Positions 2,898-17,484 of a stretch of 64,000 bases of DNA are shown here, piece after piece (position 1 is the first letter of the stretch; each line of letters starts with the position of its first letter). The translations under genes and the position numbers were made by a program. This DNA is from Minisyncoccota bacterium (GTDB taxonomy: Bacteria > Patescibacteriota > Minisyncoccia > JAHISW01 > Tagabacteraceae). The notes beneath the pieces are model-generated. The model did not search any database. It saw only the letters and a list, made by a program, of their open reading frames with translations, and was not told the origin of the DNA. The stretch covers positions 9,397 to 73,396 of the forward strand of contig JAQTSC010000003.1 of assembly GCA_028711505.1 (NCBI GenBank), written 5' to 3'.

Positions 2898-4151
2898 ATG
2901 AACAAAGAACTTTCCAAAATTTTATACGAAATGGCGGAATATTACGAAATAGAAGGGACCGCTTTTAAGCCGCAGGCTTATACAAAGGCCGCTATGTCTA
3001 TTGAGTCTTTAGCTTTGGATATTTCGGAAATTTACAGAAAAGACGGAATAAACGGCCTTAAATCTATTTCCGGCGTCGGTTCCGGTATCGCCGAGCGCAT
3101 TGAAGAGTATATGAAAAGGGGAAAGATTGAAGATTACGAAAATTTAAAAAAGAAGTTTCCCGCGAACGTTTCAGAGCTTACTTCCGTAGATGGCGTCGGA
3201 CCTAAACTTATAAAGCTTTTTTACGACAGGCTAAAAATAAAAGATATTAATGGTCTTGAGAAGGCAGCAAAAAAAGGGGAAATTAAAAATCTTCCAAGGT
3301 GCGGAGAAAAATTGGAAAAGAAGATTTTAAAATGGATTGAATTTTACAAAAAATCCGTTAACGATTCTTTGCCGGAAGAAATTTTCGGTTTGCCAAAAGA
3401 TAATGGGCTGGGGTTTATTGAGGAAAAAGATATCAAAGGCGATTTGCATGTTCACTCCCATTACAATGCTGATAAAGAGTTTGTAAACAGGATGATACAA
3501 AAAGCGGCAGAGAGGGGATATGAATATCTTGGAATTTCCGACCACACGAAATTTCTCGCGATTGAACACGGGCTAAACGAGAAAGAATTGATGGAGCAGG
3601 CGGAACTGATAAAAAAATTAAGCTCGGAGCATAAAATTAAAATCTTTCACGGATGCGAAGCCAATATCTTAGCCGACGGTTCCATTGATATTTCCGACGA
3701 CGCTTTGGCAAAGCTTGATTATGTGATAGCGGGAGTGCATTCGCAGATGAAAATGCCGAAAAAAGAAATGACGGAGAGAATAATAAAAGCGATGGAAAAC
3801 CCCAATGTCGATATTATTTCTCACCCGACCGGACGAATAATCCGCCAGCGCGATGAATTTGAAATTGATTTTGATGAAATTTTAAAAACCGCAAAATTAA
3901 CCGGAACTATTTTGGAAATTAATTCCAATCCGTACAGATTGGATTTAAAAAGTTCCAATATAAAAAAAGCGAAAAAAGCGGGGGTGATGATGATTATAAA
4001 TTCCGACGCGCATCAGCCGGAACAGATGGATTTTATAAAATTTGGAATTGAAGAGGCTCGCAAGGGAGGAGCGGAGAAAAAAGATATTTTAAATATTTTG
4101 CCTTTGCAAAAATTTGTGGAGTTTTTTAAGAAAAAGAAAAAAGACAGATAA
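2898..4151 (+). CDS. PolX-family protein: N-terminal 8kDa/HhH DNA-binding domains fused directly to C-terminal PHP phosphoesterase; palm (nucleotidyltransferase) domain apparently absent
   Basis: N-terminus matches Pol beta-like lyase/fingers (GVGSGIAERI, VDGVGPKLIK HhH motifs); C-terminal GDLHVHSHYNAD...ISDH...SHP...NSDAH PHP motifs; only 417 aa versus about 570 for full PolX. Confidence 0.6.
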   Translation: MNKELSKILYEMAEYYEIEGTAFKPQAYTKAAMSIESLALDISEIYRKDGINGLKSISGVGSGIAERIEEYMKRGKIEDYENLKKKFPANVSELTSVDGVGPKLIKLFYDRLKIKDINGLEKAAKKGEIKNLPRCGEKLEKKILKWIEFYKKSVNDSLPEEIFGLPKDNGLGFIEEKDIKGDLHVHSHYNADKEFVNRMIQKAAERGYEYLGISDHTKFLAIEHGLNEKELMEQAELIKKLSSEHKIKIFHGCEANILADGSIDISDDALAKLDYVIAGVHSQMKMPKKEMTERIIKAMENPNVDIISHPTGRIIRQRDEFEIDFDEILKTAKLTGTILEINSNPYRLDLKSSNIKKAKKAGVMMIINSDAHQPEQMDFIKFGIEEARKGGAEKKDILNILPLQKFVEFFKKKKKDR

Positions 4152-8321: not shown

Positions 8322-8837
8322 TTGCAAAAAAGACCGAGAATAAATAATGAAATAAACGGATTAGAATTGCGCCTTTTGGACGAAGAGGGAAAAAATCTTG
8401 GCGTGGTTAAAACTGGCCAAGCGATTGAGATGGCGAGAGACAGAGGGCTAGATCTTATAGAAATTTCGCCCAATGCCGCTCCTCCGGTTGCCAGAATAAT
8501 GGACCTCGGAAAATTCCTTTATAACGAAAAAAGAAAAGAAAAAGAATCGGCAAAAAGCGGGCAGGATTTTTCGGAGATGAAGAACGTAAGAATCCATCTG
8601 GGTACTTCGGAACACGACCTTGAAATGAAAGCCGGCCAGGCATCGGAATTTTTGAAAAAAGGGAATCGCGTGCGGGTGGAGCTTTTTTTGAAAGGGCGTG
8701 AAAAATATCTTGAAAAGAATTTTTTAAGAGGGAGGTTTGACAGGATTTTGAATTTGATAGCGGAAAATTACAAAATTCTCCAGGACGTAAAAACCGGCCC
8801 GAGAGGCATAAATATAGTAATAGAAAAAATAAAATAA
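8322..8837 (+). CDS. infC: Translation initiation factor IF-3
   Basis: [22 protein letters not shown]... and C-domain ([15 protein letters not shown]) typical IF3; no ATG at 5' end (frame opens with TTG 8322 and ATA 8340). Confidence 0.85.
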
Positions 8838-8838
8838 T

Positions 8839-9264
8839 ATGGCAAAAGAAATTAAAACAATTTTAAAGCTTCAAATTCCAGCGGGAAAAGCGAACCCCGC
8901 GCCTCCGGTTGGTCCCGCCTTGGGTCAGCACGGAGTGAACATCGGGGATTTTGTGAATAAGTTCAACGAAGCCACGAGGGACAAGGGAACCGATATTATT
9001 CCGGTTGAAATTACCGTTTACACGGACAGGACTTTTGAATTCAAATTGAAAACTCCTCCCGCGTCGGACCTGCTTAGAAAAGCTGCCGGAATTGAGAAAG
9101 GCTCCGGAGCCCCTCATATAAAGAAAGTCGGAAAAATAAATAAACAGCAGCTGCGTTCTATTGCAGAGCGCAAGATGGAAGATCTGAATGCTAATGACGT
9201 GGAAGGCGCGGAACGTATTGTTAAAGGCACTGCCCGTTCCATGGGGATAGAAGTGGAGCAATAG
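8839..9264 (+). CDS. rplK: 50S ribosomal protein L11
   Basis: [35 protein letters not shown] canonical L11 N-terminus. Confidence 0.9.
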
Positions 9265-9290
9265 TCGAATTTCGTTTTGGTGTGATCTGT

Positions 9291-9322
9291 TGTCCGCCCC
9301 GGCGTTTTGCCGGGGCGGACTT
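9291..9322 (+). terminator. Rho-independent terminator after rplK
   Basis: gtccgccccggcgttttgccggggcggac hairpin followed by T-run. Confidence 0.55.
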
Positions 9323-9388
9323 GTTTTATTTTTCGGGGATTGCTAACTTTATCTCAGAAAAAAAATTCTTTGAAAGGAGAAAAGAGAT

Positions 9389-10240
9389 ATGGAAGAAAGC
9401 AAAAATTCTTTAAAAGACCCAAGGTTTAAACCTATCTTTACTCAAATTGTCGGTAATACCATAAGCTGGTGTTGGTTTTTGATGCTTGGGGAAATACTTA
9501 CAAGAGGGAGAAGATACGATATTACTTCTGGAAGCCTGGATTTTGAAGGAAATTTTAGACTATCGATGCCGTTAGTGGTTGAAATGCATACGCCTTCAGT
9601 AAGGCCTCTTGCTCCTTACATACCTGAAGGTAAAAATGTCCCGGCACCCACAACAGAAGAAGCTATACAGGAATATATGAAGTATCTTCTTTCCCGGGAA
9701 AAACAGCCGAATGAGCATTATACTTATGGCGAGGATTTGTGGTGGCAAGTGGAAGAAGTTATTAAGTATTATAAAAGGTATGGGTTTGGCAACGCATGTT
9801 GTCATATGGTTGTTGGCCGGCCGGAATCTTTCTTGTTTTACAATCGAGAAGTGGATTACACGGAGTTTGTAGCCGTTGAAGACAGGACATCGGGAAAACT
9901 GATTTTTAGCAGGCATATAACTAATACATGGAATAAAGACTTGCGGATAGAAGTGAGCTCCCAGTGTTTGAGGGGCGTGGATACATGGGTTCAAAACGGA
10001 AGATTGTATTTTTGCTGCTATTTTCGCTCGCAAGACGCGTGGGCGGGTTTTCCTCAAAATTACGGAGGTTTGCAGTTGGTTAAAGAATATATGGCTTCTT
10101 GCCTCAACCTTGAAGATGGTCCGCTTATTGCTATTTCTAAAGACCTGCATTTTTATAGAGACAATATTCCTTACGGATTGGAAATGATAGGGAAAAAAGC
10201 CGAAGAATTGTCTTGGTTTGAGCCGGAGGTTCGTTTATGA
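9389..10240 (+). CDS. Divergent thymidylate-synthase-fold (ThyA / pyrimidine hydroxymethylase superfamily) protein
   Basis: Alignable to ThyA core: ITSGSLDFEGNFRLS (TGTGTLSIFG), CCHMVV...FLFYN (PCHAFFQFYV), GRLYFCCYFRSQDAWAGFPQNYGGLQL ([27 protein letters not shown]), DLHFY (DTHLY); catalytic Cys, R-S-x-D and Asn present; unusual N-terminal about 40 aa. Confidence 0.55.
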   Translation: MEESKNSLKDPRFKPIFTQIVGNTISWCWFLMLGEILTRGRRYDITSGSLDFEGNFRLSMPLVVEMHTPSVRPLAPYIPEGKNVPAPTTEEAIQEYMKYLLSREKQPNEHYTYGEDLWWQVEEVIKYYKRYGFGNACCHMVVGRPESFLFYNREVDYTEFVAVEDRTSGKLIFSRHITNTWNKDLRIEVSSQCLRGVDTWVQNGRLYFCCYFRSQDAWAGFPQNYGGLQLVKEYMASCLNLEDGPLIAISKDLHFYRDNIPYGLEMIGKKAEELSWFEPEVRL

Positions 10241-10671
10241 GAAAAAACACAAAAGTAGTTGATCCGCGTTTTTCCAAAGGTAAAGGGGACTATGAGAAAG
10301 TTATTTTTTCCATAGAAAAAGAAGGTAAATGTCCTTTTTGTCCTGACAATTTCAGATACCACAAACATCCAGTTCTTAAGAGAAGAGGAGATTGGTTTAT
10401 AACCAAATCAAGCTGGCCTTATCTAAATGCCAGATTGCATTTGGTTTTAATAAAGAACTCTCATAAAGAAAGTGTCAGAGAATTGAATGTCAACGACATG
10501 AAAGACATCTTATTTTTAGTAAAATGGGCGTCGGGGGAGTTCAAAATAAGCGGTGGTGGATTAGCCATGCGTTTTGGGAAAACGGCGCATACAGGAGCGA
10601 CTGTTTGTCATATACATGCTCATCTTATTGTTCCTAAAAGAAGGAAAAGCGTTTCGTTTCCTATTGGATAG
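10237..10671 (+). CDS. HIT-family (histidine triad) nucleotide hydrolase/transferase with CxxC zinc motif
   Basis: CPFCPDNF zinc-binding motif (as in GalT/Ap4A phosphorylase branch) and HIT motif CHIHAHLIV near C-terminus; start overlaps upstream stop (ATGA). Confidence 0.5.
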   Translation: MRKNTKVVDPRFSKGKGDYEKVIFSIEKEGKCPFCPDNFRYHKHPVLKRRGDWFITKSSWPYLNARLHLVLIKNSHKESVRELNVNDMKDILFLVKWASGEFKISGGGLAMRFGKTAHTGATVCHIHAHLIVPKRRKSVSFPIG

Positions 10672-10672
10672 A

Positions 10673-10710
10673 AAAATCCTTACCCCCTAGGGGGTAAGGA
10701 TTTTATTTTA
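10673..10710. terminator. Bidirectional terminator between convergent genes
   Basis: aaaaatccttaccccctagggggtaaggatttt perfect hairpin flanked by A/T runs. Confidence 0.55.
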
Positions 10711-11530
10711 CTTGTATGATCTTTATTTTTTTTGCTTTCAGCATTTCCAAGCCGTTTAAAGAAGCATGTTCGGTTTGGAAATAAAGCCGTTGGATTCCGG
10801 AAAAAGAAACTGGCTTCGCGCACATAGGGCAAGGAAATATCAGACTATACATTGATACTCCTTGCGTTTTTATACCTTTGGCTGCAGCCACGGCTATTAT
10901 TTTTTGCTCAGCATGAAGCGATGAGGCAATATGGCTGTCTTTTCCTGCTTCAATGAAATCTCGCGGATCTCCCAAGGAATAAGGAGTGAATTCAGACGGC
11001 AAGTGCTCGTTGTGGCCTTTAACCAGTATTTTACCATTCTTGACGAAAGCGGCAGCGGTTCTTCTCCACCAACAAGAACTTTTTTCTGCTTCCTTTTTCA
11101 GTTCCGCCATTATTTCTCGGTCTCTTTTTCGGCAGGATACCAGATCGCAGCTTACTTCTGCTGAAGAGTTTACATTTTCGCTGCTCCACATGAGAAAAGT
11201 TGTGTCGTGCTCTATTTTGTTTGTCTTAGAGAGGTATCTTTCTGCAACCATAGAAGAAACAGTGTCTGTTGCCGTTATCACTTTCTTTCCGTTTATACCA
11301 GCCGCGATTTTTGGAGTGAGCACCTCGATTTTTTTGAAGGAAATTGATTCAATAATTTTTTTCATCAAAGCCGGATTAACTTGCCTGATCTCTTTGTGAA
11401 GAGTTAAAAATTCTTGAATCAGTTCATCCCCTACGATGAAAATTGTTTCGGCGCCAGCTGAGTGTCTTTTAAAGAATTCTATATATCCATTATGCAGAAC
11501 AGGCACATAAAGAAGGATGATCTTTTTCAT
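10703..11530 (-). CDS. Two-domain protein: unknown N-terminal about 150-aa domain fused to C-terminal dCMP/CMP deaminase zinc domain
   Basis: C-terminal HAEQKIIAVAAAKG...PCPMCAKPV matches cytidine/deoxycytidylate deaminase H-A-E / P-C-x-x-C zinc site; N-terminal half unrecognised. Confidence 0.55.
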   Translation of the reverse strand: MKKIILLYVPVLHNGYIEFFKRHSAGAETIFIVGDELIQEFLTLHKEIRQVNPALMKKIIESISFKKIEVLTPKIAAGINGKKVITATDTVSSMVAERYLSKTNKIEHDTTFLMWSSENVNSSAEVSCDLVSCRKRDREIMAELKKEAEKSSCWWRRTAAAFVKNGKILVKGHNEHLPSEFTPYSLGDPRDFIEAGKDSHIASSLHAEQKIIAVAAAKGIKTQGVSMYSLIFPCPMCAKPVSFSGIQRLYFQTEHASLNGLEMLKAKKIKIIQVK

Positions 11531-11540
11531 GCCCGACTCC

Positions 11541-12086
11541 TTAAACCTTGAGGTTTGTCAAAAAAGACTCAATGTGTTTTTTAAGGGTGTCTTGAATTTT
11601 CATCGAGGTTGAAGTGCTTTTTGCTTGTCTTTCCAACACGACTACTTCTTTGCAGAATTGCCGGATATCATCCAGCTGCTTCTGTGGGTAACTTTCTTCT
11701 TCTGCCACAAAAATGTCAGGTTGAATTTCTTTGATAAGTTGATATTTCCATTCTCCTTTTTCGTCTATATCATCTACCAGAGTGATTAGGTCAATGCAGT
11801 GCTGATAACTTAACATCTCCATCCTTTCGCTTTGAGGAATGACCGGTCTTAGAGGACCTTTGTAAAGTTTGACGGCCCTGTCCGTGTCCGCGCCCACAAG
11901 CAAGACATCACCTTGCTTTTTTGCTTCTATCAAATATCTAAGATGTCCGATGTGAAGCATGTCCCATGTGCCAATCGTGATTACCACTTTATAACCGAGA
12001 GTGTCTTTGAGAGTTTGGGTTAGTGTTTTTAATTTGTTAATGTCCAATACTATTTTCTTTTCCGCCGTATCTCTAAAAATTTCCAT
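11541..12086 (-). CDS. Cytidylyltransferase-like Rossmann nucleotidyltransferase (TagD/RfaE domain II-like)
   Basis: GTWDMLHIGHLRYL (HxGH motif) and VGADTDRAV...RPVIPQSER pattern of the cytidylyltransferase-like family. Confidence 0.5.
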   Translation of the reverse strand: MEIFRDTAEKKIVLDINKLKTLTQTLKDTLGYKVVITIGTWDMLHIGHLRYLIEAKKQGDVLLVGADTDRAVKLYKGPLRPVIPQSERMEMLSYQHCIDLITLVDDIDEKGEWKYQLIKEIQPDIFVAEEESYPQKQLDDIRQFCKEVVVLERQAKSTSTSMKIQDTLKKHIESFLTNLKV

Positions 12087-12168
12087 AGCCTATCCTCCTT
12101 TTTGCCTTTGTATTCTGGCTGCATACTATCAATTTGTAGGTTTCTAAGTCAAGTATTAGAATAAATCT

Positions 12169-13710
12169 ATGCTTCGGGAAATTTTAAGACAAGAAATAGA
12201 AAAGGCGGTTTTGAAACTCTTTGATAAAAAGGCCGTTTTCAATGTTTCCTGGGACGGAAAATTTTCCGATTATTCTTCCAACGCGGGTTTGTTTCTTGGA
12301 GGAAAAGACGAGGCGGAGAAATTGAAAGATGAACTTGCCAAATCGAAAGAAATTGAAGAACTTTTTTCAGAAATAAAAGTGGCCGGAAACGGTTTTATTA
12401 ATTTTCGGCTTTCGGAAAAAGGAATTGAAGATGGATTGAAATTCGCGTTGAAAGAAAAATTTGATTTTTTGAAAAGTGAAAAAATTCAGGTGGAATTCAT
12501 TTCCGCGAACCCGACAGGCCCTCTTACTTTGGGAAACGGACGGGGCGGAGTTTTTGGCGATGTCTTAGGAAATGTTTTTAAAAAAGCCGGCGCCGAAGTC
12601 GTCAAAGAATATTATATAAACAACGCGGGAAATCAGATAGAAATTTTGGGCCATTCTGTTCTGAAAGACGACAAGGCTGAGTATAAAGGCGAATATATAG
12701 ATGAACTTGGTAAAAAATTAGGAGGCGAAGAGCCCCTGGAAGTCGGCAAAAAAGCCGCGGACATAATTTTGGAAAGCATCAAAAAAACCGTTTCCGAAAT
12801 GGGGATTGATTTTGATGTCTGGTTTTCGGAGAGCAAAGAGCTTCGAGAAACCGGGAAAGTTGAAGAAATAATGAGGTGGCTTAAAGAAAAAGATTTGGCT
12901 TATGAAAAGGACGATGCTTTATGGTTTCGGGCGACAAAATTCGGGGACAGCGAAGACAGGGTTTTAATCAAAACTGGCGGCGAACCGACTTATTTCGGCG
13001 TTGATTGCGCTTATCATAAAAATAAATTTGAGGAACGGAAATTTGACCGTGTTATAAACATTTGGGGCGCAGATCATCATGGCGATGTCAAGCGCGTAAA
13101 AGGATTCATTGATGCGCTGGGGCATAAAGACAAATTTGAAATAATTTTAATGCAGTTCGTCAGGCTTTTTCAAAACGGCGCTGCTGCGCGGATGTCAAAA
13201 AGGGAAGGAGTATATGTTTTAGTTGACGATGTTCTAAAAGAAATCGGCAAAGACGCTTTCAGGTATTTTATGCTCACGCGTTCTCCTGACACGCACATGG
13301 ATTTCGATTTGGAGCTTGCAAAAGAGCAGTCAAAGAAAAACCCCGTTTATTATATCCAGTACGCCGGCGCGAGGATGAGCAATATTTTAAAAAAATCGGA
13401 GGCCGGACTTAAAAACGAAAAAATTGAAATTCAAAATTTAACAGAACCGCAGGAAAGGAGATTATTGCTGAAGCTTATCCAATTCCCGGAAATGATTGAG
13501 AGTGTTTCAAGGGATTATCAGGTTCATCGGTTGACTACTTATATATATGAACTTGCCGCCGCTTTTACCGATTTTTACGAAAATGTCCGCGTGCTTGAAG
13601 CGGAAGGAGATGAGCTAAAAAACTCTCGATTGTTGTTGGTTTCCGTTTCTAGACGTCTTTTGGAACAAGTGTTAGGATTACTTGGAATTTCGGCGCCGGA
13701 AAAAATGTAG
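12169..13710 (+). CDS. argS: Arginyl-tRNA synthetase
   Basis: FISANPTGPLTLGNGRG class I HIGH-region variant typical of ArgRS; 513 aa. Confidence 0.9.
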   Translation: MLREILRQEIEKAVLKLFDKKAVFNVSWDGKFSDYSSNAGLFLGGKDEAEKLKDELAKSKEIEELFSEIKVAGNGFINFRLSEKGIEDGLKFALKEKFDFLKSEKIQVEFISANPTGPLTLGNGRGGVFGDVLGNVFKKAGAEVVKEYYINNAGNQIEILGHSVLKDDKAEYKGEYIDELGKKLGGEEPLEVGKKAADIILESIKKTVSEMGIDFDVWFSESKELRETGKVEEIMRWLKEKDLAYEKDDALWFRATKFGDSEDRVLIKTGGEPTYFGVDCAYHKNKFEERKFDRVINIWGADHHGDVKRVKGFIDALGHKDKFEIILMQFVRLFQNGAAARMSKREGVYVLVDDVLKEIGKDAFRYFMLTRSPDTHMDFDLELAKEQSKKNPVYYIQYAGARMSNILKKSEAGLKNEKIEIQNLTEPQERRLLLKLIQFPEMIESVSRDYQVHRLTTYIYELAAAFTDFYENVRVLEAEGDELKNSRLLLVSVSRRLLEQVLGLLGISAPEKM

Positions 13711-14121: not shown

Positions 14122-17100
14122 ATGGATTTACCCGAAAGAGAGCAAAAGATTTTGGAGTTTTGGGAGAAGAACCTGATTTTTGAAAAAACGCTTCGCAAAG
14201 AAGCGGTTAATGGCGATTTTGTTTTTTATGAAGGACCTCCGACTGCCAATGGCAAGCCGGGCATTCATCATATTGAAGCGCGCTCTTTTAAAGATTTGAT
14301 ACCTCGCTACAAAACAATGAGGGGTTTTCGTGTTTTGAGAAAAGCCGGCTGGGACACCCATGGCCTTCCGGTGGAGCTTGAAGTCGAGAAAAAATTAGGG
14401 CTTAAAAGTAAAAAAGACATTGAAGAATATGGAATAGAAAAATTCAATCAAAAATGCAAAGAAAGCGTCTGGGAGTATAAAGACGAATGGGAAAAAATAA
14501 CAAAACGAATCGGATTTTGGGTTGATTTGGAAAATCCGTACATCACTTATGAGACGGATTATATAGAAACGCTTTGGTGGATTATAAAACAGGCGGATGA
14601 GAAAGGATTTTTGTACAAAGGACACAAGGTGGTGCCAAATTGCCCGCGTTGCGGCACGGCGCTTTCTTCTCATGAAGTCGCGCAGGGGTATAAAAATGTA
14701 AGCGAAGAATCGGTCTATGCGAGATTTAAAATCAAAGGCAAAGAAAATGATTATATTTTGGCGTGGACAACGACTCCTTGGACATTGCCGGGAAACGTGG
14801 CTCTTGCGGTTGGAAGCAATATTGAGTACGTAAAAATTAAAAATAAAGATGCCGGAGATAATTTAATTTTAGCGAAGGAACGATTGGCTGCTATTGATGG
14901 CGAATACGAAATTTTGGAAGAATTGAAAGGCGCTGACCTCGTCGGTCTTGAATACGAACCTCTTTTCTCGGGCGCGATCCCCGAAAATACGCCGAATTTT
15001 GAAAAAGCTTTTAAAGTTTATTCTGCTGATTTTGTTTCAACCGAAGATGGCATCGGTGTGGTGCACACCGCGGTAATGTATGGGATAGACGATTATGAAC
15101 TCGGAGAAAAAATTGGGCTTCCGAAATTTCACACGGTTAATTCTGACGGAACTTTCAATGAAAGCGTGCCGAAGTGGAAAGGAAAATTTGTAAAAGACAC
15201 TGACAAAGAAATTATTTCCGATTTGGAATCTCGCGGATTTTTGTTTAAAACCGAAAATTATTCTCATGATTATCCTTTTTGCTGGAGATGCGGAACTCCG
15301 CTTCTTTACTACGCCAAAGACTCGTGGTTTTTCAAGATGAGCGGACTTCGCGACGAGCTTGTAAAAAATAACGAAAAAATAAACTGGATCCCCGGACATA
15401 TTAAAGAAGGAAGGTTTGGCGAGTGGCTAAAAGACGCGAAAGACTGGGCAATATCCCGAGAAAGATATTGGGGAACTCCGATGCCGGTTTGGGAATGCGA
15501 AAAGTGCGGCAAAAGAAAGATAGCGGGTTCAATAGATGAAATCCGCGAAGAGTTCGGAAACCCGAATAAAATTTTTCTGGTGCGGCATGGAGAAGCGGAA
15601 ACTACGCTGAAGGGAGTTGGAAATTCAATGCCAGAAACGGAGAAGTACCCACTTACGGGAAAAGGGAGGGATCAAATTAAAGAATTAGCAAAAATCTTAA
15701 AGGATGAAAAAATAAATTTTATTTATGCTTCGCCGATTTTAAGGACAAAAGAAACAGCGGAAATAATAGCGGACAAGCTTGGGCTTGAAATTATTTTTGA
15801 CGAACGGCTAAGAGAAACAGGGCTTGGAGAATTCAATAACAAAAAAATTGAAGAGCTTCATAGTATTTATCCGACGAAAGAATCTCGCGCGGGCGAAACC
15901 GTACGCGGAGTTGAAAGCGGAAGAGACGTGAGGAAAAGATTTGAAGAATTTTTAAGCGAAATAAATCAAAAACACAAAAACAAAAATATTGCGGTTGTTT
16001 CTCATGGCGACCCGCTTCAGATTTTTTACGGCCTTTGCCGCGGCGAAGATTTAATGGATTCGTTTCGCGGCTGGTATCCGAAAAAAGGTGAGACGAAAAT
16101 AGTTTATTCAAAACCCGTTGATTTGCACAGGCCTTTTATAGATGAAGTGAAATTGAAATGCGAATGCGGAGCGGATATGAAAAGAGCGGCGGAGGTTATG
16201 GATTGCTGGTTTGATTCCGGGTCAATGCCGTTTGCTCAGGTTCATTATCCTTTTGAAAATAAAGGATTGGTTGATGATAAAAAACTTTTTCCCGCGGACT
16301 TCATTTCCGAAGCCATAGACCAGACGCGCGGATGGTTTTACACTTTGCTCGCGGTTTCCACGATGCTCGGCTTTAAAGAGCCATACAAAAACGCTATTTG
16401 CCTCGGGCATGTTCTTGATAAAAACGGGCAAAAAATGAGCAAAAGCAAGGGGAACGTCGTAAATCCCTGGGAAATGATAGACAAATACGGAGCTGACAGC
16501 GTGAGGTGGTATCTTTACACCGTAAACCAACCCGGAGAGCAGAAGCGTTTTGATGAAAATGACCTGAAGCTTTCAAAGAGGATGTTTACGACGCTTTTTA
16601 ATGTTTTGTCTTTTTACAAAATGTTTTCAGCGGCTGGGCAGCCGGAAAAAATTGGAGTGGAAGAACCGGCGCACGTTTTGGACAAATGGATTTTAAATTA
16701 TCTGGCGAAAACAGAAATTGAGATAACCGATCTTTTGGAAAAATACGATATAACCTCCAGCGCTCGAAAAATTGAAGCGTTTATAAACGATTTGTCTGTT
16801 TGGTATTTAAGACGTTCTCGTGAAAGATTTAAGGGGGAAGACGAAAAAGATAAAGCCGCCGCCCAAAAAACGCTTGGTGAGGTTTTGCTTTCAGTTTCAA
16901 AACTTCTGGCTCCCTTCGCGCCATTTTCCGCGGAGGCTGTTTATAAAGAACTTTGCGAAGAAAAAGAATCGGTTCATTTGGAAAATTGGACAAAGGCTGA
17001 CGAAGAATACGATGAAAAAATTTTGGAAGAAATGGCAAGGGTCAGAAATGACGTTTCAGTCGGTTTGGACTTGCGGCTTAAATCTGGAATAAAAGTGCGC

Positions 17101-17484
17101 CAGCCGCTTTCATCTTTTGAAACGCCGAATAAATTTGGCGCCGAATTTTCCGCGTTGATAAAAGACGAGCTTAATGTAAAAGAAATAAAATTCGGCAAGG
17201 AATATAAAATTGATGCAAGAATTACCGACGAGCTGAAAAAAGAGGGGATGTTAAGGGAAATAACCCGCGCGATACAGGATTTGCGCAAAAAAGCCGGGTT
17301 TGTTCAATCTGACAAAATTATTTTGGCGGTTGATACGGATGCCGGAGGCAAAGATTTTATGAGCGGGTTTGAAGAAAAGATAAAATCCGCGACCAATTTG
17401 TCGGAAATAAAATTTGTTTCTTTTGAAGAAGGCGAAAAATTTGAAGTAGGCGAATCAAGCTTCAGGATAAAAATCGAAAAATAA
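14122..17484 (+). CDS. ileS: Isoleucyl-tRNA synthetase carrying an inserted histidine-phosphatase (PGAM-like) domain
   Basis: PPTANGKPGIHHIEARSF HIGH motif, KMSKSKGN motif, editing domain, anticodon-binding region. An extra domain with LVRHGEAE...SPILRTKETAEII...DERLRETGLGEF...VVSHGDPL lies between the WECEKCG zinc knuckle and the CWFDSGSMPF motif. Confidence 0.95.
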   Translation: MDLPEREQKILEFWEKNLIFEKTLRKEAVNGDFVFYEGPPTANGKPGIHHIEARSFKDLIPRYKTMRGFRVLRKAGWDTHGLPVELEVEKKLGLKSKKDIEEYGIEKFNQKCKESVWEYKDEWEKITKRIGFWVDLENPYITYETDYIETLWWIIKQADEKGFLYKGHKVVPNCPRCGTALSSHEVAQGYKNVSEESVYARFKIKGKENDYILAWTTTPWTLPGNVALAVGSNIEYVKIKNKDAGDNLILAKERLAAIDGEYEILEELKGADLVGLEYEPLFSGAIPENTPNFEKAFKVYSADFVSTEDGIGVVHTAVMYGIDDYELGEKIGLPKFHTVNSDGTFNESVPKWKGKFVKDTDKEIISDLESRGFLFKTENYSHDYPFCWRCGTPLLYYAKDSWFFKMSGLRDELVKNNEKINWIPGHIKEGRFGEWLKDAKDWAISRERYWGTPMPVWECEKCGKRKIAGSIDEIREEFGNPNKIFLVRHGEAETTLKGVGNSMPETEKYPLTGKGRDQIKELAKILKDEKINFIYASPILRTKETAEIIADKLGLEIIFDERLRETGLGEFNNKKIEELHSIYPTKESRAGETVRGVESGRDVRKRFEEFLSEINQKHKNKNIAVVSHGDPLQIFYGLCRGEDLMDSFRGWYPKKGETKIVYSKPVDLHRPFIDEVKLKCECGADMKRAAEVMDCWFDSGSMPFAQVHYPFENKGLVDDKKLFPADFISEAIDQTRGWFYTLLAVSTMLGFKEPYKNAICLGHVLDKNGQKMSKSKGNVVNPWEMIDKYGADSVRWYLYTVNQPGEQKRFDENDLKLSKRMFTTLFNVLSFYKMFSAAGQPEKIGVEEPAHVLDKWILNYLAKTEIEITDLLEKYDITSSARKIEAFINDLSVWYLRRSRERFKGEDEKDKAAAQKTLGEVLLSVSKLLAPFAPFSAEAVYKELCEEKESVHLENWTKADEEYDEKILEEMARVRNDVSVGLDLRLKSGIKVRQPLSSFETPNKFGAEFSALIKDELNVKEIKFGKEYKIDARITDELKKEGMLREITRAIQDLRKKAGFVQSDKIILAVDTDAGGKDFMSGFEEKIKSATNLSEIKFVSFEEGEKFEVGESSFRIKIEK

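Follow-up and report, generated by a model that had tools for sequence, protein, structure and literature searches.

A putative thymidylate-supply island in a Patescibacterial genome, with a divergent ThyA-like synthase and a fused deoxycytidylate deaminase

We analyzed a four-gene island within a stretch of 64,000 nucleotides (64 kb; hereafter, the window) of contig JAQTSC010000003.1 from a Minisyncoccota bacterium (Patescibacteriota). The island encodes a divergent relative of the thymidylate synthase ThyA, a small HIT protein, a fusion protein that ends in a deoxycytidine monophosphate (dCMP) deaminase domain, and a nucleotidyltransferase, referred to below as the transferase; the last three are collectively called the trio. 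The four open reading frames (ORFs) are found exactly where a preliminary description of this DNA had placed them. With positions counted from the first letter of the window, the features of the locus are the following:

8839 to 9264, plus strand: rplK, encoding ribosomal protein L11 (PF03946/PF00298); left border of the conserved island slot
9292 to 9320, plus strand: terminator-like hairpin 3' of rplK, with a 13-bp stem, 11 G-C pairs and a T-tail
9389 to 10240, plus strand: putative ThyA-like thymidylate synthase of archaeal type (long Patescibacterial form), 283 amino acids (aa); PF00303, TIGR03283
10237 to 10671, plus strand: Hint/Fhit-like HIT protein, 144 aa, with CPFC at 32-35 and H125-x-H127-x-H129
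10673 to 10704, no strand: bidirectional intrinsic terminator, a perfect 14-bp palindromic stem between an A-run and a T-run
10703 to 11134, minus strand: dCMP-deaminase domain of the fusion (about aa 133-275), with HAE at 206-208 and PCPMC at 233-237
11147 to 11530, minus strand: N-terminal domain of the deaminase fusion (aa 1-128), predicted to be a degenerate HIGH-type nucleotidyltransferase-like Rossmann domain
11541 to 12086, minus strand: HldC/RfaE-II/TagD-like nucleotidyltransferase, 181 aa, with an intact TxGxxDxxHxGH and a C-terminal TSTS
12123 to 12152, minus strand: sigma-70-like promoter match 5' of the transferase-deaminase operon; weak, a consensus match only
12169 to 13710, plus strand: argS, encoding arginyl-tRNA synthetase (ArgRS); right border of the conserved slot

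The ATG of the HIT gene overlaps the stop codon of the thyA-like gene by 4 nt, and the transferase ORF ends 10 nt ahead of the start of the fusion deaminase, whose whole ORF occupies 10703-11530 on the minus strand and encodes 275 aa. The terminator at 10673-10704 separates the convergent stops of the HIT and deaminase genes, in line with the bidirectional terminator described before between the opposing strands. Upstream, the hairpin at 9292-9320 is strong and closes the rplK transcript before the island. The number of promoter-like matches in the region was not above the shuffled expectation. The left flank reads secE-nusG-rpmI-rplT-infC-rplK and the right flank argS-ileS, and the flat G+C content of the window gives no sign of a foreign origin for the island. 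A search with hidden Markov models (HMMs) and tblastn found no ThyX, canonical ThyA, DHFR, SHMT, FolD, DCD, dUTPase, Tmk or YfbR-like HD protein in the 64-kb window besides the island; hence, the separate thyA or thyX whose presence had been raised earlier was found in neither form within this stretch.

The ThyA-like protein scored 35.9 bits against PF00303 (cut-off 24.3), with the match limited to residues 175-273. Its best curated match was TIGR03283, the methanogen-type synthase, where residues 22-259 aligned with model positions 5-197 of 201 (E 1.5e-16); the protein reached 60.5 bits, far short of the 174.55 set as equivalog cut-off, despite the full-length alignment. Thymidylate synthases were the only proteins matched in the family and sequence searches. 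On these scores, the protein belongs to the ThyA superfamily and is related to the methanogen-type synthase without being its equivalog. When compared with canonical ThyA by hhalign, only E. coli residues 122-227 and query residues 170-274 were paired (probability 95.7), and within this aligned stretch all the residues that contact deoxyuridine monophosphate (dUMP) are kept: E. coli C146 corresponds to C193 of the window protein (in SSQCLRG), R166 to R213, S167 to S214, D169 to D216, N177 to N224, H207 to H254, and Y209 to Y256. The motifs RSQD (213-216), GFPQN (220-224) and DLHFY (252-256), from which the protein had been regarded as alignable to ThyA across the catalytic core, were confirmed. 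The CCH motif, taken in the same description as the nucleophile region, was not: C137-C138-H139 is not conserved in the family, and it is C193 that aligns with the E. coli nucleophile. This cysteine position is invariant in 120 of 120 homologs, and the catalytic and dUMP-binding residues are kept in 118-120 of the 120, the exception being D216 (115/120, with Asn in the other 5). The position of E. coli H147 is an invariant Leu in the ThyA-like family. An Asn at the ThyA N177 position specifies uracil, and the cytosine-specific T4 enzyme has Asp there. Asn224 is found in 120/120 homologs, and thus the comparison of specificity residues, proposed earlier as a means to separate a true ThyA from a pyrimidine hydroxymethylase, gave dUMP-binding residues that match canonical ThyA, including the uracil-specifying Asn.

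The homologs of this protein come in two forms. The long one, Patescibacterial, has 255-283 aa and shares 45-73% identity with the window protein; a protein 100% identical to the latter is encoded in a metagenome-assembled genome of Candidatus Pacebacteria. The short one, of about 215 aa, occurs in archaea, Chloroflexota and Desulfobacterota, cultured Desulfacinum species among the last group. Relative to the short form, the long one has an insert of about 45 aa that aligns with the classical SRRxIxSAWN segment, its R175, W181 and N182 matching E. coli R127, W133 and N134. The methanogen-type synthase (about 200-215 aa) has the same invariant core and the same short C-terminus as the window protein; it differs in that it does not carry the insert, and the cofactor of the Patescibacterial form is probably folate rather than methanopterin. 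A literature search for MJ0757 found nothing.

To place the island in a wider context, we gathered 173 loci (L numbers below) by exact-protein look-ups, by a species-genome scan with an alignment of the ThyA-like protein, and by a metagenome scan with an alignment of the N-terminal domain of the deaminase (N-domain), and annotated them with HMMs built from those loci. Among the 38 metagenome loci with enough flanking sequence, the transferase was present in 38, the HIT protein in 37, and a thymidylate synthase in 38. The fusion deaminase was preceded immediately by the transferase and followed immediately by the HIT gene, with median gaps of about 20 nt between transferase and deaminase and about 46 nt between deaminase and HIT. 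Gene order, orientation and outer flanks varied among the genomes, and the set was retained, even in L002 and L090, which lie outside the rplK slot. Both the transferase and the HIT protein were absent from all the loci (11/11) with a short deaminase of the GYNG type. The island often sits in the rplK..argS slot of Patescibacteria; L11 borders it in many related loci, and ArgRS is encoded 3' of it in L013, L014, L016, L089 and L092. In Patescibacteria the ThyA-like gene always adjoins a dCMP deaminase, usually in this same slot, and is followed on its 3' side by DCD-SHMT-FolD in L005 and L010-L012, by Tmk in L048, and by ThyX-Tmk in L006 and L007.

The thymidylate synthase next to the trio was not always of the same kind. 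Canonical ThyA accompanied the trio in 60/60 sampled loci (e.g., L089-L093, with a C-terminus ending in PVAI) and was the type present in all 80 metagenome loci with a synthase; the ThyA-like protein took this place in the window and at least in L002, L008 and L088, and no locus with both was found. The same slot beside the same trio thus holds either synthase, indicating gene displacement in a conserved operon, and no other observation argues as strongly for the ThyA-like protein filling the role of ThyA. By sequence comparison, the three proteins of the trio represent new subfamilies of known families, and no paper describing this trio was found in the literature.

Further genes were observed in these islands. 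A YfbR-like HD protein (5'-deoxynucleotidase family) is a frequent fifth member, absent from the window (L002 6985-7500, L008 5266-5871, L091 3555-4145, L092 3029-3622). In L006 (5001-6610) and L007 (5001-6484), an intact ThyX with the motif RHRxxSxxxxSxRY lies directly downstream of the ThyA-like gene and is followed by Tmk; L007 looks frameshift-riddled, and only L006, identical to L009, is reliable for this adjacency. The thymidylate/folate island of L092 includes a CofD-like gene (615-1586, PF01933) and an F420-ligase/CofE-like gene (8777-9502, PF01996), possibly for modification of a pterin or folate tail rather than for F420 synthesis.

The presence of DHFR, the product of folA, was then recorded in the gene neighbourhoods, to which all these counts refer, rather than to whole genomes. 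ThyA and FolA have been described as a coupled unit (PMC9931769). DHFR was encoded in 41/60 canonical-ThyA loci, often with a 4-nt overlap with ThyA or HIT (L093). It was found in 0/15 Patescibacterial ThyA-like loci and in 0/85 ThyA-like loci overall (Fisher p = 8e-7). For the short form of about 215 aa (L017-L087), which is widespread in Desulfobacterota, Chloroflexota/Dehalococcoidia, some Actinomycetota, and archaea, 0/70 loci had a DHFR gene at a distance of up to about 8 kb. No alternative reductase was detected beside the ThyA-like genes; the unassigned neighbours in L013-L016 and L008 were ArgRS, ribosomal proteins, or proteins with no Pfam match. The absence of DHFR near these genes suggests that the archaeal-type enzyme displaces ThyA and DHFR together, as ThyX does, and we hypothesize that archaeal-type ThyA is independent of DHFR. 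Bacteria of the candidate phyla radiation (CPR) commonly carry functional folA, glyA and folD (PMC11974145). The same study reported 81 Thermodesulfovibrionales genomes with thyA, with folA in only 4.9%, from which its authors inferred folate auxotrophy (PMC11974145); these thyA-positive, folA-negative organisms may concern the short ThyA form.

The C-terminal domain of the fusion matched PF00383 with 49 bits over residues 135-252 only, and its HAE and PCPMC motifs are invariant. Its best sequence matches were the dCMP deaminases of S-TIM5, T4 and S. mutans, and all the top 15 Foldseek matches of the AlphaFold2 model of the deaminase (predicted local distance difference test, pLDDT, 85.8) were dCMP deaminases. 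Both the sequence and the predicted fold thus place this domain closest to dCMP deaminases. In the deaminase family DCTD, the motif G(Y/W)N(A/G) is an allosteric element that binds deoxycytidine triphosphate (dCTP) and deoxythymidine triphosphate (dTTP) (PMC12088426). In the window protein this motif is replaced by GHNE; the fusion family has x(H/Y)NxH, whose fourth motif position is never A or G, and the short single-domain deaminases of sister genomes have GYNG. Judging by these motifs, the fusion deaminase has lost the classical dCTP/dTTP allosteric motif.

The N-domain of about 128 aa contains the motifs PVLHxGY, EIR and FL(R)W(D), with H13, G15 and Y16 invariant. It gave no Pfam match even at E values up to 10, and a search of its profile against the sequences of the Protein Data Bank returned nothing meaningful. 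Modelled alone with AlphaFold2, it formed a five-stranded Rossmann-like domain (pLDDT 89.3), for which the best Foldseek matches were TagD (2b7l; a weak match, E 4e-3, template modelling (TM) score 0.58), HldC, PPAT and NMNAT. The invariant PVLHxGY loop sits where HIGH enzymes carry HxGH, and the motif of the N-domain at this place is HxGY. Hence, the domain probably folds like a degenerate, non-catalytic HxGH nucleotidyltransferase, according to the model. In an hhalign comparison with the neighbouring transferase, PVLHxGY fell in register with the transferase motif DMLHIGH, a suggestion only that both are paralogs. A profile search over 1.84 billion representatives returned 598 clusters, in which the domain was always N-terminal and occurred only as a deaminase fusion, with full-length members of 275-300 aa. 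The earlier account of a deaminase fused to an unrecognized domain holds as to the fusion and the lack of a Pfam match, and the size needs correction from 150 to about 128 aa. As to the possibility, considered in the same account, that the fusion is a known and routine one, it is routine in Patescibacteria, as the 598 clusters indicate, and yet the domain corresponds to none described.

Fusions of comparable design are found in CDADC1 and DcdV, where an N-domain is joined to an active DCTD-like domain and allostery is lost or changed (PMC12088426); the substrate range of those enzymes is shifted to dCTP. The N-domain of vertebrate CDADC1 is an inactive deaminase domain and that of Vibrio DcdV a P-loop kinase domain, whereas the one described here is predicted to be a HIGH-nucleotidyltransferase-like Rossmann domain. 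The island fusion also differs from both in its phyletic range and in its obligate transferase and HIT neighbours.

The transferase matched PF01467 with 63.5 bits, and its HIGH tetrad lies at 45-48, in support of the HxGH nucleotidyltransferase named in the preliminary description. TxGxxDxxHxGH and the C-terminal TSTS are kept in all nine aligned orthologs, with HIGH and T158-S159 (of TSTS) invariant. The closest structure was HldC (5x9q, 5e-14), followed by ethanolamine-phosphate cytidylyltransferase (ECT) and TagD, and the score against TIGR02199 (rfaE_dom_II), 90.2, is under the cut-off of 181.5. The conserved motifs suggest that this protein is probably an active NTP:phosphate-ester nucleotidyltransferase.

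The HIT protein reached 19.9 bits in Pfam, just under the cut-off of 21.5, and many of its orthologs carry PF01230. HIT hydrolases ordinarily carry CPFC as a zinc motif near the N-terminus. Both this motif (32-35) and HIHAH (125-129) are present as previously noted, with H125, H127 and H129 invariant. The assignment to the GalT/Ap4A-phosphorylase branch did not hold: the motif is HxHxH and not the HxHxQ of that branch, and the HIT profile was nearest to Hint/Fhit-type structures (E 1e-4 to 2e-3), compared with E 0.13 for Ap4A phosphorylase and E 0.7 for GalT. The HIT family includes 118 proteins with 46-67% identity, and every source name that bears a lineage is Patescibacterial. From their sequences, both the transferase and the HIT protein are seen as Patescibacteria-specific subfamilies. 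A second, more distant HIT paralog of about 200 aa, with CPFC and HLHVH, is encoded beside the first in L089 (5891-6502) and in about 20 of the loci L094-L173, in islands with canonical ThyA; it is absent from the window.

Taken together, the four genes are likely to be a Patescibacterial thymidylate-supply island, a variant of the classical route by way of dCMP deaminase and thymidylate synthase. The fusion, through its C-terminal domain, would deaminate a deoxycytidine nucleotide, dCMP or possibly dCTP, to the deoxyuridine nucleotide, and the 283-aa ThyA-like protein would then methylate dUMP at C5 to deoxythymidine monophosphate (dTMP), with Cys193 as the nucleophile, as a functional replacement of canonical ThyA. 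The one-carbon donor would be a methylene-tetrahydropterin, most likely methylene-tetrahydrofolate, because SHMT and FolD adjoin the ThyA-like gene in relatives. The likeness of the fusion to dCMP deaminases, the thymidylate-pathway neighbours, and the canonical ThyA found in the same slot agree with the minimal claim made earlier, namely that this is at least a dCMP to dUMP to dTMP unit.

The part played by the other domains is proposed with lower confidence. Since the N-domain, the transferase and the HIT protein strictly co-occur, the N-domain may depend on the other two, and it could be a nucleotide-binding module in place of the lost allosteric site. Transferases of this family make NMP-O-P-X bonds, where NMP is a nucleoside monophosphate, and HIT enzymes cleave such bonds. 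One would expect a transferase-like fold that has degenerated to bind that same product, and we therefore guess that an NMP-phosphate-linked compound is produced by the transferase, bound by the N-domain and broken down by the HIT protein. This could work in a feeder version, with (d)CTP and X-P giving (d)CDP-X that would be deaminated or hydrolysed to dCMP or dUMP, or in a regulatory version, a maker-binder-breaker loop for a ligand that would replace dCTP/dTTP allostery. More tentatively, and with considerable doubt, we link both aspects of the island: the trio would be a new three-part unit for dUMP control or supply across Patescibacteria, and the archaeal-type ThyA would work without DHFR, either by a reaction in which the pterin is not oxidized to the dihydro form or by use of another reductant.

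The same two steps are proposed for this island as for the classical route known from Gram-positive bacteria, eukaryotes and the T4 cd/td genes, with its ThyA-FolA-GlyA cycle. Both share HAE and PCxxC in the deaminase and the Cys nucleophile, RSxD, Asn and HxY in the synthase, and sister genomes carry ThyA, DHFR, SHMT, FolD, dUTPase and Tmk around the same partner genes. Unlike the classical route, the island has a predicted archaeal-type synthase with no C-terminal tail and no DHFR nearby, a deaminase without G(Y/W)N(A/G) and with an extra nucleotidyltransferase-like N-domain, and transferase and HIT genes that have no counterpart there. With respect to the classical ThyA family, the ThyA-like protein departs in its C-terminal lid and, in the neighbourhoods covered, in its DHFR linkage, and retains the catalytic residues. 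The transferase shares the intact HxGH and the C-terminal S/T-rich motif with HldC/RfaE domain II, TagD and ECT (PF01467), and the HIT protein shares the CxxC zinc motif and HxHxHxx with Hint/Fhit hydrolases; both differ from the characterized members, none of which is known to be tied to a thymidylate operon in this way, and both score under the cut-offs of the curated families (rfaE_dom_II and Pfam, respectively), as separate subfamilies.

Several observations weigh against the proposed pathway. No DHFR was found near any ThyA-like gene, and hence there is no support for a classical cycle that produces dihydrofolate. The position of the folate-stacking F176 is variable in the family (V, E, T, A, S or Q). 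The tail after HxY has a median of 20.5 residues, compared with 55 in E. coli; the window protein has 27 aa after Y256, and canonical Patescibacterial ThyAs retain the PVAI end, so that the classical active-site lid is absent from the ThyA-like family. With phmmer, hmmsearch and hhalign alike, the first 170 residues found no counterpart in classical ThyA; the alignment stops at E. coli residue 115-122, approximately, and therefore no equivalents of R21, E58, W80, W83 and Y94 are assignable. An intact ThyX adjoining the ThyA-like gene in L006 and L007 is odd for an isofunctional pair in a tiny genome, and the enzymology of archaeal ThyA has never been followed up (PMC9931769). For the N-domain, the fold match is weak, and the hhalign comparison with the transferase was non-significant (E 0.025, probability 2%). 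For the transferase and the HIT protein, the proposed role is drawn purely from their co-occurrence and from the chemistry of their families.

Some of these points could be explained if the ThyA-like protein were a dUMP hydroxymethylase or another C5-pyrimidine modifier, and the cluster made a modified DNA pyrimidine, a possibility raised in the preliminary description. In classical ThyA, the exocyclic methylene intermediate is shielded by the very tail that the family lacks, and the tail of T4 dCMP hydroxymethylase is also short; the folate-contacting F176 position is not conserved; a hydroxymethylase regenerates tetrahydrofolate and would need no DHFR nearby; the adjoining ThyX is a true thymidylate synthase; and the N-terminal half is unalignable to ThyA. 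The phage hydroxymethylases of the T4 gp42 and SPO1 types share the ThyA fold and the Cys nucleophile with the window protein. However, canonical ThyA occupies the same slot beside the same trio in 60 loci, the neighbours are housekeeping genes (SHMT, FolD, DCD, Tmk, dUTPase, rplK and argS), and no kinase, glycosyltransferase or aminoacyl-transferase genes of the hypermodification type, nor other downstream modification genes, were found nearby. When 50,697 phage records were searched by tblastn, no more than 13 weak matches (about 30% identity) appeared, all of them C-terminal and to phage thymidylate synthases, and the PHROGs matches were thymidylate-synthase families only; the form of about 215 aa is annotated as thymidylate synthase in methanogens, Chloroflexota and Desulfobacterota, the cultured Desulfacinum among them. 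Cytosine substrates are excluded by Asn224, and a dCMP hydroxymethylase of the T4 gp42 type was rejected, as it requires Asp at the N177 position, where all 120 homologs have Asn. A dUMP hydroxymethylase of the SPO1 gp29 type, for which we know of no sequence diagnostic, is also improbable, with neither a phage or hypermodification context nor such a PHROG match. With all the dUMP-binding residues kept, Asn224 included, no close phage relatives, and a housekeeping context, the hydroxymethylase and hypermodification idea is unsupported, and we consider it quite improbable.

Another explanation is that the functional link extends no further than the deaminase and the synthase, with the transferase (a sugar-phosphate or cofactor nucleotidyltransferase, e.g., of the HldC or RibL type) and a generic Ap4A/phosphoramidate housekeeping hydrolase, the HIT protein, kept beside them by nothing but inherited synteny. 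The best families of the transferase, heptose-1-phosphate adenylyltransferase domain II and HldC, are unrelated to pyrimidines, and all the loci come from one phylum, so that shared ancestry inflates the co-occurrence counts. Nevertheless, the transferase was found in 38/38 and the HIT protein in 37/38 loci across proteins only 30-60% identical; the set stays together despite rearranged order and orientation and different outer flanks (L002, L090); in the window, L091 and L093, a 4-nt overlap couples the translation of the HIT gene to that of ThyA or DHFR; and transferase and HIT are strictly absent where the deaminase has no N-domain, a domain that in the model shares the fold class of the transferase. 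Inherited synteny is therefore an unlikely account of the trio, although a better one than the hydroxymethylase is of the synthase. The least credible alternative is that the fusion deaminase is an anti-phage enzyme for nucleotide depletion, similar to DcdV or the dCTP-deaminase defence proteins. It does show weak zinc-motif matches to NF041025, 'anti-phage dCTP deaminase' (37 bits), and to the PADLOC dCTPase (30.8 bits, residues 204-251 only), and the architecture, a nucleotide-binding N-domain followed by a dCMP-deaminase domain, is analogous to that described for DcdV in a preprint. Yet these scores are far under the cut-offs (400 for NF041025) and cover only about 48 residues, the N-domain is modelled as a HIGH-nucleotidyltransferase fold and not a P-loop kinase, and hundreds of lineages keep the gene in a housekeeping operon with ThyA, DHFR and SHMT, adjoining ribosomal genes, and not in a variable defence island. 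A defensive function is thus highly improbable, and a thymidylate-supply island is the interpretation that we favour.

Other features were observed around the island. In the window, the isoleucyl-tRNA synthetase gene (14122-17484, plus strand; 1120 aa) contains a complete histidine-phosphatase insert (PGAM-like, PF00300; residues 484-644, 127.7 bits; about 15571-16053) that splits the class I catalytic domain, and a free-standing His_Phos_1 gene lies near argS in L092, in the same neighbourhood. Two small 23S_rRNA_IVP/bAvd genes (2556-2909 and 3535-3909) flank nusG in the conserved secE-nusG-rplK row of L005, and in L007 (671-3113) the gyrB upstream of secE is split by an intein (PF14890).

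Collectively, the data contain no evidence for modified DNA bases in CPR bacteria. They show that hundreds of Patescibacterial lineages keep three extra parts locked into a textbook ThyA/DHFR operon, and the trio points to a further supply or control step for dUMP in these nucleotide-scavenging organisms. The exchange of archaeal-type ThyA for ThyA plus DHFR offers a clean natural experiment on the cofactor chemistry of the archaeal-type enzyme and its need for DHFR. If a ThyA-like enzyme free of DHFR is true, it would explain the joint displacement of ThyA and DHFR seen here. The result also bears on how thyA-positive, folA-negative genomes are read, currently as those of partner-dependent folate auxotrophs; should the DHFR-free enzyme prove real, such lineages, e.g., the Thermodesulfovibrionales (PMC11974145), need not be folate auxotrophs.

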